DNA of 64,000 nucleotides from an uncultured Clostridia bacterium. GTDB lineage: Bacteria > Bacillota > Clostridia > Christensenellales > UBA1242. The stretch lies in assembly GCA_944381135.1 (NCBI GenBank), contig CALWJY010000015.1, positions 291,453 to 355,452 on the forward strand, in the 5' to 3' direction. Position 1 is the stretch's first letter. Each line of letters starts with the position of its first letter. The notes beneath the pieces were generated by a model. That model had not been told where the DNA came from. It worked only from the letters and a program-made list of their open reading frames with translations, and ran no database searches. Position numbers and translations under genes: made by a program. This document shows, piece after piece, positions 25,698-29,510 of this stretch.

Positions 25698-25726
25698 TTG
25701 TCTTTTTGTGTCGATAAATGTATAAT
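25698..25726 (+). promoter_or_regulatory. sigma-70-type promoter of the GT2 operon
   Basis: TTGTCT (25698-25703) is followed by a 17-nt spacer and TATAAT (25721-25726). Confidence 0.5.
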
Positions 25727-25763
25727 GGCAATGAAATATGTCTTGAAGGAGTTTGTTTTTAAA

Positions 25764-27107
25764 ATGAGTTATATTGATGTGGTTAATATAGTTATGCTGG
25801 TGATTGGAATTTTGACAGCAATTTTTCCAATTCAATATGCGATAATTTTCATTATTGGAATTTTTGCCAAAAGAAAAACTTTTCCAGAAAGAGAAGAAAA
25901 GTTGAGATATGGTGTGGTGATTTGCGCCCGCAATGAAGAAAAAGTGGTTGGAAATTTGGTGGAAAGCATCCGCAAATGCAACTATCCTCAAGACAAATTG
26001 GATGTTTTTGTGATTGCCCACAACTGCACAGACAACACAGCAAAAGTTGCACGAGAAAGTTGCGGGGGCGATTGCGTTGTTTATGAATATAACAACAACT
26101 CCGAACGCACAAAAGGCTATGCCTTAAAACGAATTTTTCAATGCATTGAGAAAGATTATGGAATCATGAATTATGATGGTTTCTTTGTTTTTGACGCCGA
26201 CAATGTTTTGGACGGCGAATTTTTCAATAAAATGAATGATGCGTTTTTATATTATGATAAACAAAACGCCATCACCTCTTTTCGCAATTCAAAAAATTTT
26301 GGAGCAAACTGCCAAACTGCAATGTATGGCATTCTTTATGTTGCAGGTTGTCGCTTGGAATCTGGTGGAAGAATGGCGCTCAATTGCTCTTCTCGAATTT
26401 TAGGTTCTGGTTTTCTTGTCAGCTCCGAAATGGTTAAGGATGGTTGGAACATCGTGATTCTTTCAGATGACACAGATTTCACAATTGACCAAGTGCTTCA
26501 AGGCAAAAAAGTTATGTATTGCGATGAGGCAATGTATTATGACGAGCACCCCACAACATTCAAAGCTATGTGGCGTCAAAGACTGAGATGGGCAAAAGGC
26601 ACATTGATTGTTTGCAAACAAAGAATCAAAGACCTTTGGAAAACTGTGTTTGGTTTGAAGAAAAAAGGAAAAGAAGAAAAACAACTGCGTGGTTCTTCTT
26701 TTGATTTGATTTGCACAATTCTTCCAGTGGGTGCAATTGGTGTTGTCATCTTAATTTTAAATGTAATTTTGATTTCCCTTTCTCCTTTGTTTGGTTGCGA
26801 CGTCGCTGAGGCGTTCAGAATTTGGGGTGTAACTTTTGGGTTTTCTACACTTTTTGGTTATGTTGGATTATTGATTAGCGCAATCATTTGCTATATAAAA
26901 GAAAGACACAGAATCAAAAATGTTCCTTTGCACATTAAGATTTTTTCTTCTTTATTGTGGCCGTTTTTTGCAATTCTGCTGGTTCCATTGCAGATTGTTG
27001 CAATGTTCACAAGAAAGTTCACATGGACTCCAATTGAACATTCCTACACGGCAAATCATTCAAGCTTTAATGCTGAAGAAACAAAAGAAATAAAGGAGAA
27101 AAAATAA
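25764..27107 (+). CDS. membrane-embedded family-2 glycosyltransferase (processive synthase-like)
   Basis: An N-terminal TM helix precedes the GT-A core 'VVICARNEE', 'FVFDADN' (DxD) and 'QRLRWAKG' (Q(R/Q)xRW-type motif of processive GT2 synthases). Four or five C-terminal TM helices follow. The ATG at 25764 lies downstream of the promoter and 12 nt after GAAGGAG. Confidence 0.8.
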   Translation: MSYIDVVNIVMLVIGILTAIFPIQYAIIFIIGIFAKRKTFPEREEKLRYGVVICARNEEKVVGNLVESIRKCNYPQDKLDVFVIAHNCTDNTAKVARESCGGDCVVYEYNNNSERTKGYALKRIFQCIEKDYGIMNYDGFFVFDADNVLDGEFFNKMNDAFLYYDKQNAITSFRNSKNFGANCQTAMYGILYVAGCRLESGGRMALNCSSRILGSGFLVSSEMVKDGWNIVILSDDTDFTIDQVLQGKKVMYCDEAMYYDEHPTTFKAMWRQRLRWAKGTLIVCKQRIKDLWKTVFGLKKKGKEEKQLRGSSFDLICTILPVGAIGVVILILNVILISLSPLFGCDVAEAFRIWGVTFGFSTLFGYVGLLISAIICYIKERHRIKNVPLHIKIFSSLLWPFFAILLVPLQIVAMFTRKFTWTPIEHSYTANHSSFNAEETKEIKEKK

Positions 27108-28805
27108 ATGAACATCACGATTCTTTCTGGCGGTTCAGGAAATGACGCCTTAATTAAAGGGCTTGAAAAACTCTTAAACAAAAATGACAGCGTCAAAATT
27201 GACGTGATTGTCAACGCCTATGACAACGGAAAATCAACCGGTGTTTGTCGTGCAGTCACCGACACCCTTGGCGTTTCTGACATACGAAAAAATCATTCGC
27301 GCATGTATGAAGCCACTTTTGGAGACAAGGCAGATTGCAACATTGTGGATTTCTATGGCAAACGATTCAATTTTGAAAAAGGCAAAGAGGTTGAACAAAT
27401 TTGTGAGCAACTTGACATGTGGAAATTGCCGGAATATAAACCTTATGTTCAAAGGTTCTTTGAAAATGTAAAAGCAAATGAATATGAATATAAAGATTTC
27501 AGCATCTCAAACATTGTCTATGCACAGATGTATAAAGAAGAGGGTTATGAAAAAACCAACAAGCATTTTTGCGACAAAATTGGCATTGCAGATTTTGTCA
27601 CACTCAACTCTTTTGACAATGTGTTCATCAAAGCAGAAACAGAATCTGGACACGTAATTCAAGACGAAGGCGAAACTGTTTTTTGGAACAATCCAAACGA
27701 CAAAATTGTCAAAACAATCTATGATGTGAAAACGCATTTTGGTTTAAATCCTCGCGCGGTCAAACTTGTTGAGCAAAGTGACCTCATCGTCATCTCCACT
27801 GGGACATTTTGGAGTTCAATTCAACCAACAATTGAATATCTTGGTTTCTACAAACACATCAACAATTCCAAAGCCAAAAAAATTTGGGTCATCAACAACG
27901 AAGAAGATGGCGACTCTTTTGGTGTGAACAGTGTTGAATTTGTCAAATTTATGGAAAAAACTGGGTTAAATTTGGACGATTTCATCATTTTGCTGAATGA
28001 TGATGCTTGCCCATCACTTAAGATGAAAGACTCAAAACATCATTTTGTTGTCAAGTCTATGGGCAACACAAAAGGAAAGCACAACGGCAACAAATATGCC
28101 AGAGCATTGTTGCAAATATATTATGGAATTGAAGACGCAAGCCAATATGACAAAATCCTCTTCGATTTTGATGACACAATTTGGTCTCGCGACAAATCTA
28201 AAGAGGAAACATCAATTGAAAACGCAAAAATTGTCAATTCCCTTTCAGAAAAAGCCGCCATTGTGAGTGGCAATTCATATGAAAGCATCCATGAAAAATT
28301 GGCAAAAATTTTTGGAAAAAATTTGGAAAATTTCAATGTTGACATTTGGGCAGATGCAAATTCAACCTTATATAGAAAAAACAAATCGGTTGATTTCATT
28401 CAGTCTTTTGCATTGGATGAAAACGCAAAAAAGGCGGCCGAGCAACTCAAACAAGATTTCAACCTTGAAATGCAGGCCTTTGGAGATAAGGCTGTTGTGA
28501 ATTTCAAAATTAAACCTCTAAGTTCGCTTGAAAGAAAGTTGCTGATTGAAGTTTGCAATTTGAGATATGGCAAAATTTTCAAAGGTCATTCAACAGGAAG
28601 AACAACCGTTGACATTCTAAGTTCCAAAAACAGTAAAGCGGAAACTTTCAAGCACTGCAAGTTTGACAAACTGAAAACGCTTTTTGTTGGCGACGAACTG
28701 GAAGAAGGAAACGATGTGGACGTTGCAAAACTTTGCAATGTGGCTGTGCAAGTGGACGGGGTTGAAGAAACCAATCTTATCCTCAATCTTTTGGTGGGAG
28801 AATAA
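27108..28805 (+). CDS. fusion protein: YvcK/CofD-family (UPF0052) domain plus HAD-IIB-like phosphatase domain
   Basis: The N-domain (about 27108-28139) carries 'ITILSGGSGNDALIKGL', 'VNAYDNGKSTGVCR...GVSDIRKN' and 'DLIVISTGTFWSSIQPT', which parallel YvcK/CofD motifs (GGGTG, DDGGSSG..GDxRN, GPGSLYTS). The C-domain (about 28140-28802) carries 'ILFDFDDTIW' (DxDxT), 'VSGNS' and 'GDELEEGNDVD'. Confidence 0.65.
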   Translation: MNITILSGGSGNDALIKGLEKLLNKNDSVKIDVIVNAYDNGKSTGVCRAVTDTLGVSDIRKNHSRMYEATFGDKADCNIVDFYGKRFNFEKGKEVEQICEQLDMWKLPEYKPYVQRFFENVKANEYEYKDFSISNIVYAQMYKEEGYEKTNKHFCDKIGIADFVTLNSFDNVFIKAETESGHVIQDEGETVFWNNPNDKIVKTIYDVKTHFGLNPRAVKLVEQSDLIVISTGTFWSSIQPTIEYLGFYKHINNSKAKKIWVINNEEDGDSFGVNSVEFVKFMEKTGLNLDDFIILLNDDACPSLKMKDSKHHFVVKSMGNTKGKHNGNKYARALLQIYYGIEDASQYDKILFDFDDTIWSRDKSKEETSIENAKIVNSLSEKAAIVSGNSYESIHEKLAKIFGKNLENFNVDIWADANSTLYRKNKSVDFIQSFALDENAKKAAEQLKQDFNLEMQAFGDKAVVNFKIKPLSSLERKLLIEVCNLRYGKIFKGHSTGRTTVDILSSKNSKAETFKHCKFDKLKTLFVGDELEEGNDVDVAKLCNVAVQVDGVEETNLILNLLVGE

Positions 28806-28808
28806 AAT

Positions 28809-29510
28809 ATGATATATGGACTTATTATTTGCGCCGGAAAGCAATCGCGCTTTAAAAGCGACATTCCAAAAGCTCTTATGCAAATCAATGGAACAAGTTT
28901 GCTGGAAAGAAACATCAAAGCAATGACTCCATATTGCGATGAAATATACACCGTCTGCTCAACAGAAAATCAGCATCATTTCAAAACGCCCAACAAAATT
29001 GTCATCAACTCTGGCAAAGGCAGTGGTGATGCCGTTCTTAAGGCGTTGGAAAAACTTCACATAGCTCCTGACGACTCTTGCTTCATAATGTGGGGAGATT
29101 CTCTGCAAAATTCAACAATTTTTGCAGTCCTAAAAAAGAACTATCATGGAGTTTCGCTCATCCCATGCACTTATGAAGAAAATCCATATGTGCAAATCAT
29201 CCCAATGAAAAAAGACAAGGTTCTTGTCAGATTCTCAAAATTTGGAGAGCCAATTTCTGCAGGATTTCATGACCTAAGCATTTTTTACTGCAACGCAATT
29301 GAATTGCTGGAAAAATTAAAAGAATTCCAACATAAAATTCTTGATTTGGACGAAAATTATGTGCACAAACACAACAACGAAATGGAATTTTTAGATGTTT
29401 TTAACGAAACAGACCTCCGTGCAAACATTCTTGATTTAAAATATTATAAAGCTTTCTCTTTCAACACTCTTGAACAATTTCAAAAATTGGTTGATGAGGA
29501 AAATTTTTAA
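28809..29510 (+). CDS. nucleotidyltransferase (MobA/GlmU-N/CofC-like NTP-transferase fold)
   Basis: 'GLIICAGKQSRFKSDIPKALMQING' matches the G-x-G-x-R-(x)n-PK signature of sugar-phosphate and phospho-acid nucleotidyltransferases. A GGTGGGAG SD precedes the start. Confidence 0.7.
   Translation: MIYGLIICAGKQSRFKSDIPKALMQINGTSLLERNIKAMTPYCDEIYTVCSTENQHHFKTPNKIVINSGKGSGDAVLKALEKLHIAPDDSCFIMWGDSLQNSTIFAVLKKNYHGVSLIPCTYEENPYVQIIPMKKDKVLVRFSKFGEPISAGFHDLSIFYCNAIELLEKLKEFQHKILDLDENYVHKHNNEMEFLDVFNETDLRANILDLKYYKAFSFNTLEQFQKLVDEENF

Follow-up and report, generated by a model that had tools for sequence, protein, structure and literature searches.

A GT2 synthase operon with a YvcK/CofD-like::HAD fusion and a GlmU-like nucleotidyltransferase: a candidate nucleotide-sugar donor module with homologues in phages

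A three-gene operon and its predicted products

We analyzed a 64,000-nucleotide (nt) stretch of DNA from an uncultured Clostridia bacterium (contig CALWJY010000015.1; hereafter the window), and in particular an operon of three open reading frames (ORFs) on the + strand, called at positions 25698-27107, 27108-28805 (565 aa), and 28809-29510 (233 aa). These encode, in order, a GT2 membrane synthase, a fusion of a UPF0052 (YvcK/CofD-like) domain to a HAD-IIB domain, and a GlmU-like nucleotidyltransferase (Table 1). The ATG of gene 2 directly abuts the TAA stop of the GT2 gene, with which it shares a frame, and the gap between genes 2 and 3 is 3 nt. Shine-Dalgarno-like sites lie 5′ of each start (GAAGGAG for gene 1, AAGGAG for gene 2, and GGTGGGAG for gene 3). 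An original prediction had described three tightly packed genes in one operon behind one promoter. The 0-3 nt spacing and the conserved synteny reported below support the operon; a promoter-like site is indeed present, but on its own the match is within chance, with 12 such sites found against 14.4 expected. The TTG at 25698, called as the ORF start, was rejected as the start of the GT2 gene, as it forms the −35 hexamer of this site. The true start is most likely the ATG at 25764, yielding 447 aa, because GAAGGAG lies upstream and the alignment to the Mycoplasma fermentans orthologue begins at that ATG.

Gene 1 encodes a synthase-type GT2 enzyme, as had been proposed from DxD and QRxRW motifs and transmembrane segments. 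It matched Pfam PF13641 (GT2; 7e-23) and PF13632 (1.8e-16), the motifs read DAD and QRLRW, and hydropathy indicated one N-terminal and about three C-terminal hydrophobic segments (~aa 310-348, 356-379, and 391-419). The protein aligns with M. fermentans BAH69904 over 388 aa at 53% identity (E 2e-148), and by analogy with this orthologue it is predicted to polymerize and export a polysaccharide. The M. fermentans synthase clusters with the furanan synthases of the Mollicutes M1 cluster (PMC11658790), which include the galactofuranan synthase of Mycoplasma mycoides and resemble the window GT2 in having DAD, QxxRW, and few transmembrane helices and in lacking PilZ. Those systems rely on Glf for UDP-galactofuranose (UDP-Galf), whereas no Glf-like gene was found in the 64-kb stretch: tblastn with a Glf (UDP-galactopyranose mutase) sequence gave no match in the window or any fetched locus, a search that covered these sequences only. 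GT2 paralogues that stand without the other two genes are 41-50% identical to the window GT2. In three loci (L024, L031, and L036, at ~8700-11450), such paralogues are preceded by a 364-373-aa protein whose N-terminus, by sequence appearance, resembles glycolipid glycosyltransferases of the monogalactosyldiacylglycerol (MGDG)-synthase/GT28 type, and this clade may elongate a glycolipid.

The N-terminal domain of the gene 2 protein falls within the UPF0052/CofD superfamily, as originally proposed. Residues 3-295 match Pfam CofD (PF01933) at 2.7e-20, with 73.2 bits against a cut-off of 30, under a model that spans the entire superfamily, YvcK included. The GGGxG motif ascribed to it is a misreading, the actual sequence being S-G-G-S-G-N-D. 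Within the superfamily, the domain is nearer to YvcK/GlmR than to CofD. Its best profile and Foldseek matches were the YvcK-type structures 2ppv, 2hzb, and 2o2z, with CofD/FbiA second; profile E-values were 1e-13 to 4e-10 for YvcK-type structures and only 0.058 for CofD (3c3d), and Foldseek TM-scores were 0.75 and 0.66, respectively (CofD E ~2e-8). With the NCBIfam YvcK model TIGR01826, the domain scored 61.5 bits, below the cut-off of 196.

Residues D39, K42, R48, D58, R60, K61, H63, and R65 are invariant across 74 homologues, and the basic residues among them fit a phosphate-rich substrate or active site, which they suggest without proving it. FbiA needs a metal held by D45 and D57 (PMC7253369); by motif alignment rather than structural superposition, D57 corresponds to the invariant D58, while D45 falls on N40, a position that varies between N, S, and A. 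The uridylyltransferase activity of GlmR needs D40, D41, and N198 (PMC10128056). Here, D40 corresponds to the invariant D39, D41 to the N/S/A position, and N198 is unmapped, and the DD motif of YvcK/GlmR reads D-N in the window protein. The YvcK family binds UDP-Glc and UDP-GlcNAc (PMC5482804). The window family differs from it in its own invariant basic residues, in the HAD fusion, and in its setting, which is not a yvcJ-yvcK-whiA operon but one with GT2 and nucleotidyltransferase neighbors. With CofD/FbiA the domain shares the superfamily fold and the pairing with a nucleotidyltransferase gene (CofC/FbiD there), but it has no conserved D45 counterpart, and its partner is GlmU-like instead of CofC-like. 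No F420 genes (cofC, cofE, cofG/H) were found among the window neighbors or in related loci, in agreement with the original prediction, and a true CofD with a role in F420 synthesis was rejected on this ground and on the higher profile and fold scores of YvcK-type structures.

The C-terminal ~225 aa of the window protein gave no Pfam match. Among the 74 fusion members, PF00702 was matched by 26 and PF08282 by 12, with Pfam PMM (PF03332) absent from the 25 most frequently matched families. The HAD motifs D353-x-D355-x-T357, S387-G-N, K510, and G528-D-E...G534-N-D536 are invariant in all 74, so the catalytic Asp residues are intact and the proposed fusion of a HAD-IIB domain to UPF0052 holds. 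A single-sequence PDB search returned noise only; a profile was needed, and it matched 4bnd (4e-8) and 7myv (1.9e-5). In an AlphaFold2 model of the fusion, built on an alignment of this family (pLDDT 93.5), an alpha/beta insert at ~aa 412-505 between motifs II and III forms a C2B-type cap. Foldseek placed 4bnd, the HAD-type α-phosphoglucomutase (α-PGM) of Lactococcus lactis, and phosphomannomutases (PMMs) first, with trehalose-6-phosphate and Cof-type phosphatases close behind; all matches were IIB enzymes (PMM, trehalose-6-phosphate phosphatase, YbiV, and SupH). A fold search of BFVD found stand-alone HAD proteins only and no two-domain relative. Like 4bnd and eukaryotic-type PMMs, the domain keeps DxDxT...R, T-x-D...K, and a cap Arg. 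In a HMMER alignment, R361, R476, and T500/D502/K510 align with R21, R141, and S179/D181/K189 of PMM2. Identity to 4bnd and the PMMs is only 14-20%. Sequence does not separate mutase from phosphatase activity, and the domain is predicted to be mutase-like, closest to α-PGM/PMM. The phosphatase originally proposed was thus correct as to the HAD-IIB class, but the closest relatives are sugar-phosphate mutases.

Gene 3 encodes a nucleotidyltransferase, as had been said, although of the GlmU rather than the CofC/MobA fold. It matched Pfam NTP_transf_3 (PF12804; 5.8e-12) at the N-terminus only, and the signature A9-G10-K-Q-S-R14...P20-K21 is invariant in the family alignment. The best PDB profile match was the sugar-1-phosphate nucleotidyltransferase ST0452 (2.8e-8), followed by IspD (4myb) and GlmU. 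With an AlphaFold2 model (pLDDT 94.9), the top 24 Foldseek matches were all the uridylyltransferase domain of GlmU (TM 0.76-0.81 over all 233 aa), and IPCT, LicC, RmlA, and MurU came next. CofC/FbiD was absent from 48 PDB profile matches and from the Foldseek top 50, MobA was absent from the Foldseek top 50, and a Pfam search gave no match to PF01983 (CofC). A CofC-like identity was rejected on these GlmU-type profile and fold matches. The fusion family is neither a CofD nor a canonical YvcK, and gene 3 is not a CofC.

Table 1. Features of the operon, with positions in the window
Feature	Position	Strand	Basis or remark
Promoter-like site, TTGTCT-17 nt-TATAAT	25698-25726	+	10/12 matches; overlaps the TTG called as ORF start
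GT2 membrane synthase, 447 aa	25764-27107	+	Pfam, motifs, hydropathy; ribosome-binding site GAAGGAG at 25745-25751
GT2 motif DAD	26193-26201	+	aa 144, counted from ATG 25764
GT2 motif QRLRW	26577-26591	+	aa 272
UPF0052 (YvcK/CofD-like) domain, aa 1-339	27108-28124	+	Pfam PF01933, PDB profile, Foldseek
N-domain motif SGGSGND	27126-27146	+	
N-domain motif YDNGKSTGVCR	27219-27251	+	
N-domain motif GVSDIRKNHSR	27270-27302	+	
N-domain motif STGTFWSSIQPT	27795-27830	+	
HAD-IIB domain, PMM/α-PGM-like, aa 340-565	28125-28805	+	Invariant motifs, profile, Foldseek
HAD motif I, DFDDT	28164-28178	+	
HAD motif II, SGNS	28266-28277	+	
HAD cap, KIKPL	28506-28520	+	
HAD TGRTTVD	28593-28613	+	
HAD motif IV, GDELEEGND	28689-28715	+	
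GlmU-N-like nucleotidyltransferase, predicted sugar-1-phosphate substrate, 233 aa	28809-29510	+	Pfam, profile, Foldseek
Nucleotidyltransferase signature AGKQSRF...PKAL	28830-28877	+	

Conservation in cellular genomes, Mollicutes, and phages

At least 584 proteins are close homologues of the fusion. A search of a 50%-identity clustered library gave 813 representative clusters at E≤1e-3, most of them from gut metagenomes and phages, and 186 at E≤1e-30. Of the 150 best that were listed, the majority contained both domains in 550-640 aa, with identity falling as low as 30%. In species-representative genomes, the nucleotidyltransferase gene directly follows the fusion in all 17 loci with enough DNA. 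The partner of this pair varies: 13 loci (Clostridia-type) have the GT2 synthase 5′ of it, three loci from Bacilli-like metagenome-assembled genomes (MAGs) continue with a GT8::ABC-ATPase fusion and an ABC-2 permease, and one, on a contig binned as Methanobrevibacter, continues with a GT2_4 protein, a Wzx flippase, and further GT2s. The 13 Clostridia-type loci and the M. fermentans cassette described below bear out the co-conservation of the three genes. The GT8 arrangement is an unusual synthase-exporter fusion, a 595-aa GT8 domain::ABC-transporter ATPase and then the ABC-2 permease, directly after the pair (L015:8532-11383, L016, and L017). The contig binned as Methanobrevibacter sp. (L014, CADAOO010000025.1) is either a case of cross-domain transfer or a binning error.

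Alternative gene fusions join the neighboring parts, as in P0361 (GT2::CofD::HAD) and P0479 (CofD::HAD::nucleotidyltransferase). The domain order CofD-HAD-nucleotidyltransferase is constant across all cases, and synteny persists in bacteria, Mollicutes, and phages even where identity has fallen to 27-30%. In the window, the operon is flanked 5′ by divergent ComEC and holA genes and 3′ by convergent genes for a 118-aa protein and a metallo-beta-lactamase-fold hydrolase, flanks that indicate a chromosomal setting. ComEC and holA adjoin the operon in only one close relative (L018), and so the GT2-fusion-nucleotidyltransferase triad moves as a unit. The fusion and nucleotidyltransferase form a conserved, portable core with a variable glycosyltransferase partner (GT2, GT8, T4 β-glucosyltransferase [BGT]-like, or TET-associated glycosyltransferase [TAGT]). 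The literature searches turned up neither functional work on the fusion nor a report linking it to phage DNA modification or glycosyltransferases, consistent with the earlier statement that no YvcK/CofD-HAD fusion had been characterized.

The closest described counterpart of the operon is in M. fermentans. The capsule of strain PG18 was identified by nuclear magnetic resonance as a β-(1→6)-glucofuranose homopolymer, with C1 at 109.1 ppm and H1 at 4.99 ppm (Gaurivaud et al. 2024, PMC11658790). The authors noted that transposases flank the region encoding the sole synthase of PG18, BAH69904, that this region is probably of Clostridial origin, and that it contains an NDP-nucleotidyltransferase gene and two pseudogene halves of the CofD family as well; M. 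fermentans has pgm and galU but no Glf, and the pathway to the glucofuranose donor was left unexplained (PMC11658790). We recovered the cassette from four assemblies, three of them M. fermentans genomes and one metagenomic, by a protein homologue search followed by retrieval of the encoding contigs, as GTDB representative genomes gave no M. fermentans with either the fusion alignment or BAH69904 as query. It consists of the same three genes in the same order as the window, namely, GT2, a 340-aa CofD-like protein, and the nucleotidyltransferase, with 52-53%, 64%, and 55% identity to the window proteins. Unlike the window operon, it is bordered by insertion sequence fragments, resembling a composite transposon, and its CofD-like protein is without the HAD domain, stopping exactly at the domain border of the window fusion. 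A HAD remnant was looked for in the Mollicutes loci and none was found. A related Mollicutes-like contig (L048) has the same HAD-less cassette; there, a Cof-type HAD-like gene (L048:1-723, with a GDGLND motif seen by eye) sits directly 5′ of GT2, either as a possible source of the HAD activity that the cassette lacks or by coincidence.

The CofD-like and nucleotidyltransferase genes are intact in three of the four M. fermentans assemblies, and strains M64 and JER are among those with intact genes. Comparison of L047:2641-3662 with L045:11319-12341 revealed that the CofD-like gene of L047 has lost 1 nt from a T5 run at nt 455, leaving two ORFs of 164 and 184 aa; some PG18 sequences are likewise frameshifted in this gene.

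Phages carry the pair as well. Four phage contigs of 118-180 kb encode fusion homologues with 48-51% identity, the nucleotidyltransferase adjacent in all four, together with DNA polymerase A, helicase, primase, RecA, clamp-loader, and T4-like structural genes. Neighbors of the pair are either a T4 BGT-like protein with thymidylate-synthase-like, dUTPase, and dCMP-deaminase genes or a TAGT. In the cultured Ralstonia jumbo phage RsoM2USA, the order of BGT-like gp2, fusion gp1 (29% identity to the window fusion, full length), and nucleotidyltransferase gp486 spans the ends of the linear record. The same pattern was seen in 17 IMG/VR loci, with the nucleotidyltransferase adjacent in 13 of the 14 that have enough downstream flank; no nucleotidyltransferase ORF was called in L056. 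L062 is divided at a different point, with a 338-aa protein that has the CofD part alone preceding a HAD::nucleotidyltransferase fusion. The partners are again T4 BGT-like or TAGT, often beside thymidylate-synthase-like genes.

Several further features of the phage loci were noted. Thymidylate-synthase-like proteins of ~440 aa stand beside the BGT-like gene and the module at L062:1483-2799 and L050:5587-6909, the former with a nucleotide-kinase-like domain at its N-terminus; this grouping of genes is the one expected for a hydroxymethyl-pyrimidine pathway. In one phage group (L051, L057, L058, and L060), conserved proteins of ~297 aa, with no Pfam match, and ~376 aa, with no significant match and a weak likeness to a sliding-clamp N-domain, lie on either side of the pair. 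One or other of these may be a new DNA glycosyltransferase. A 777-aa clamp-loader-like AAA+ protein (L049:1285-3618) has matches to intein-splicing (Hint) domains.

A candidate donor-supply module and its alternatives

Homology, folds, motif conservation, synteny, and the alternative gene fusions are direct observations, and from these and the structure models we think it probable that genes 2 and 3 form a module supplying an NDP-sugar to the adjacent glycosyltransferase. With slightly less assurance, though still leaning toward it, we read the operon as a whole as a self-contained synthase-dependent polysaccharide system. The GT2, GT8, T4 BGT-like, and TAGT families mostly use nucleotide-sugar donors; as the pair is constant while its partner varies among these families, a module for donor supply is expected rather than a decorator of one polymer. 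A HAD domain resembling mutases that bind hexose bisphosphates, the GlmU-like nucleotidyltransferase, and the YvcK/GlmR-family N-domain likewise argue for nucleotide-sugar metabolism.

In the scheme that we propose, the module would turn a hexose phosphate into an NDP-hexose, possibly NDP-glucofuranose. The CofD-like domain would phosphorylate or phospho-activate the anomeric position of a hexose-6-phosphate, the HAD domain would act on the resulting 1,6-bisphosphate, whose 6-phosphate would be either cleaved off or relocated, and the nucleotidyltransferase would produce the NDP-sugar. The donor would be consumed by the adjacent glycosyltransferase, in the window by a GT2 that polymerizes and exports. 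We infer the substrates, the order of steps, the identity and ring form of the sugar, the polymer, and the role of the CofD-like domain. The same logic of kinase, HAD phosphatase, and nucleotidyltransferase also serves NDP-heptoses. The order of steps is proposed by analogy with a phage route to UDP-arabinofuranose for DNA arabinosylation, in which arabinofuranose-5-phosphate is converted by a kinase to the 1,5-bisphosphate, by a HAD phosphatase to arabinofuranose-1-phosphate, and by a nucleotidyltransferase to UDP-arabinofuranose (PMC13326640). The enzymes of that route are an arabinose 5-phosphate isomerase, the kinase::nucleotidyltransferase AfhE, and the HAD phosphatase AfhF (PMC13326640).

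The two systems are alike in passing from an ω-phosphate through a 1,ω-bisphosphate and a sugar-1-phosphate to an NDP-furanose with three activities, in being encoded beside DNA glycosyltransferases, and in needing no pyranose/furanose mutase. They differ in that AfhE has a kinase-fold domain fused to its nucleotidyltransferase and AfhF is GmhB-like, whereas the module has a YvcK/CofD-like domain at the place of the kinase and a PMM-like HAD domain, and in the isomerase, which is not present in the window module. Set against the AfhE-AfhF and HldE-GmhB pathways, the nucleotidyltransferase, the HAD domain, and the adjacent glycosyltransferase are all present, and only the kinase role of the CofD-like domain is hypothesized.

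Hosts normally already possess UDP-glucose, and a dedicated module of three activities suggests an unusual donor. NDP-glucofuranose is our best guess, because the cassette is orthologous to the one linked to the glucofuranose capsule of M. fermentans, which has no Glf-type mutase; glucofuranose as the sugar is tentative, with the balance of probability leaning against it. We would place a little less weight again on the CofD-like domain being an anomeric phosphotransferase. The module would work like known sugar-activation cassettes but through an uncharacterized enzyme family, and there is a sizeable, though minority, chance that new enzymology is involved. Similarly speculative is the joint proposal that the YvcK/CofD-like domain is a new enzyme enabling hexofuranosyl nucleotides to be made without a flavin mutase, underlying both a glucofuranan capsule of bacteria and mycoplasmas and an undescribed hexofuranosyl, or otherwise unusual hexosyl, hypermodification of DNA in many gut and jumbo phages. 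Such a flavin-free route might trap the furanose form of a hexose phosphate by anomeric phosphotransfer, or might employ a non-flavin ring mutase acting on the NDP-sugar.

Several points weigh against this proposal. We know of no kinase-type activity in the CofD/YvcK superfamily, and by motif alignment only one of the two metal-binding aspartates of FbiA has a conserved counterpart. The top structural matches, α-PGM and GlmU, equally fit plain UDP-glucose synthesis. The Mollicutes cassettes are without the HAD domain. The assignment of BAH69904 as the glucofuranan synthase is itself a proposal. Moreover, glucofuranan was demonstrated in PG18, and the annotation of this very strain lists the CofD-like gene as two pseudogenes (PMC11658790); L047, an independent assembly, carries the T5-run deletion that would give the PG18 split. 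If PG18 truly has no CofD-like protein, that protein is dispensable for the glucofuranose donor.

The best-surviving alternative, though we judge it improbable, is that the pair boosts plain UDP-glucose (or UDP-GlcNAc) for an ordinary pyranose polymer, with the HAD domain as α-PGM, the nucleotidyltransferase as UDP-glucose pyrophosphorylase, and the YvcK-like domain as a GlmR-type sensor of UDP-sugars or an accessory uridylyltransferase. The best matches of the HAD domain (L. lactis α-PGM 4bnd) and of the nucleotidyltransferase (GlmU) are what this alternative would predict, as are the binding of UDP-Glc and UDP-GlcNAc by YvcK and the report that GlmR forms UDP-GlcNAc from UTP and GlcNAc-1-phosphate in vitro (PMC10128056). 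Many of the phage partners are also T4 BGT-like, resembling an enzyme that uses UDP-Glc, and a DNA-glucosylating phage would benefit from independence of host galU. Such a booster would need only two activities, however, and no part is more conserved than the YvcK-like domain, which is retained even where HAD is lost. M. fermentans owns pgm and galU and still keeps the CofD-like and nucleotidyltransferase genes intact in most assemblies, and its furanose polymer would be left unexplained.

Slightly less probable again is phosphodiester decoration or priming, the mechanism put forward in the original prediction together with a variant of it. Here, the nucleotidyltransferase would make an NDP-activated compound, and the CofD-like domain would transfer its phospho-moiety, a small phospho-compound or hexose-1-phosphate, to a hydroxyl of the polymer, a lipid primer, or a modified DNA base, releasing NMP, with the HAD domain trimming a phosphate. 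This is the sole proven chemistry of the superfamily: CofD/FbiA transfers a substituted phosphate from an NDP donor, by attack on the β-phosphate of GDP-X with release of GMP (PMC7253369). The invariant D39, D58, K42, R48, R60, K61, H63, and R65 would suit the phosphate-rich active site that such a transfer implies, and primary hydroxyls (hexose O6, 5-hydroxymethyl pyrimidines) resemble the Fo acceptor. Decoration also predicts the state of PG18, a broken CofD-like gene with an undecorated polymer, and it gains weight if PG18 truly has no CofD-like protein. It fits less well with a nucleotidyltransferase of sugar-1-phosphate fold rather than CofC and with no PF01983 match, a mutase-like HAD domain, and loci with no F420 context. 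A single transferase would need to act on DNA bases, on several polysaccharides, and on glycans exported by ABC transporters, and a separate glycosyltransferase is always adjacent. Together with the YvcK-nearer N-domain and the varied partners, these observations make decoration a poorer reading than donor supply. Chance adjacency, or unrelated housekeeping genes, has next to no probability: the promoter-like match is within chance expectation, but the same order, the 0-3 nt spacing, synteny down to 27-30% identity, and fusions between all neighboring parts refute it.

Were the donor-supply proposal true, a function would be assigned to a large protein family (813 clusters at E≤1e-3) without a characterized member, and a YvcK/CofD-like domain would for the first time have a clearly catalytic, pathway-embedded role beyond F420 synthesis. 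It would answer the question of a Glf-free glucofuranose donor raised by the 2024 M. fermentans paper (PMC11658790), and it would predict a new sugar modification of phage DNA, bearing on restriction evasion and phage-host range. The module is shared among phages, Clostridia, Bacilli-like bacteria, Mollicutes, and possibly a methanogen, and it would represent a metabolic cassette common to surface-glycan synthesis and phage DNA modification.

Other features of the window

The closest genomes to the locus are MAGs of the uncultured Clostridia / Christensenellales type, and the sequencing runs that contain the window sequence are DNA metagenomes only, mostly from chicken gut. The 118-aa protein convergent with the operon (29591-29947, − strand) had no family match; a 41%-identical copy occupies the same position in L018, the one relative that keeps ComEC and holA.

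Elsewhere in the window, a second glycan-related cluster may lie at 4-3020 (− strand), where a polysaccharide pyruvyl transferase (PF04230, confirmed by Pfam) adjoins two ORFs that, judged from their N-terminal sequences only, are ABC-2-type permease-like and ABC ATPase-like. At 11727-17580 on the − strand are two GT4 glycosyltransferases, an Fe-ADH-like protein, and a 176-aa ORF, and opposite these genes lies one for a 725-aa protein whose C-terminal domain is citrate-lyase-ligase-like. Finally, a single ORF of 8,465 aa occupies 35971-61368 (− strand), a gene of ~25 kb with many Listeria-Bacteroides repeat domains (PF09479, PF18998). Its product is probably a giant surface protein, and the G+C content of the stretch is ~43%, against ~35% in its surroundings.

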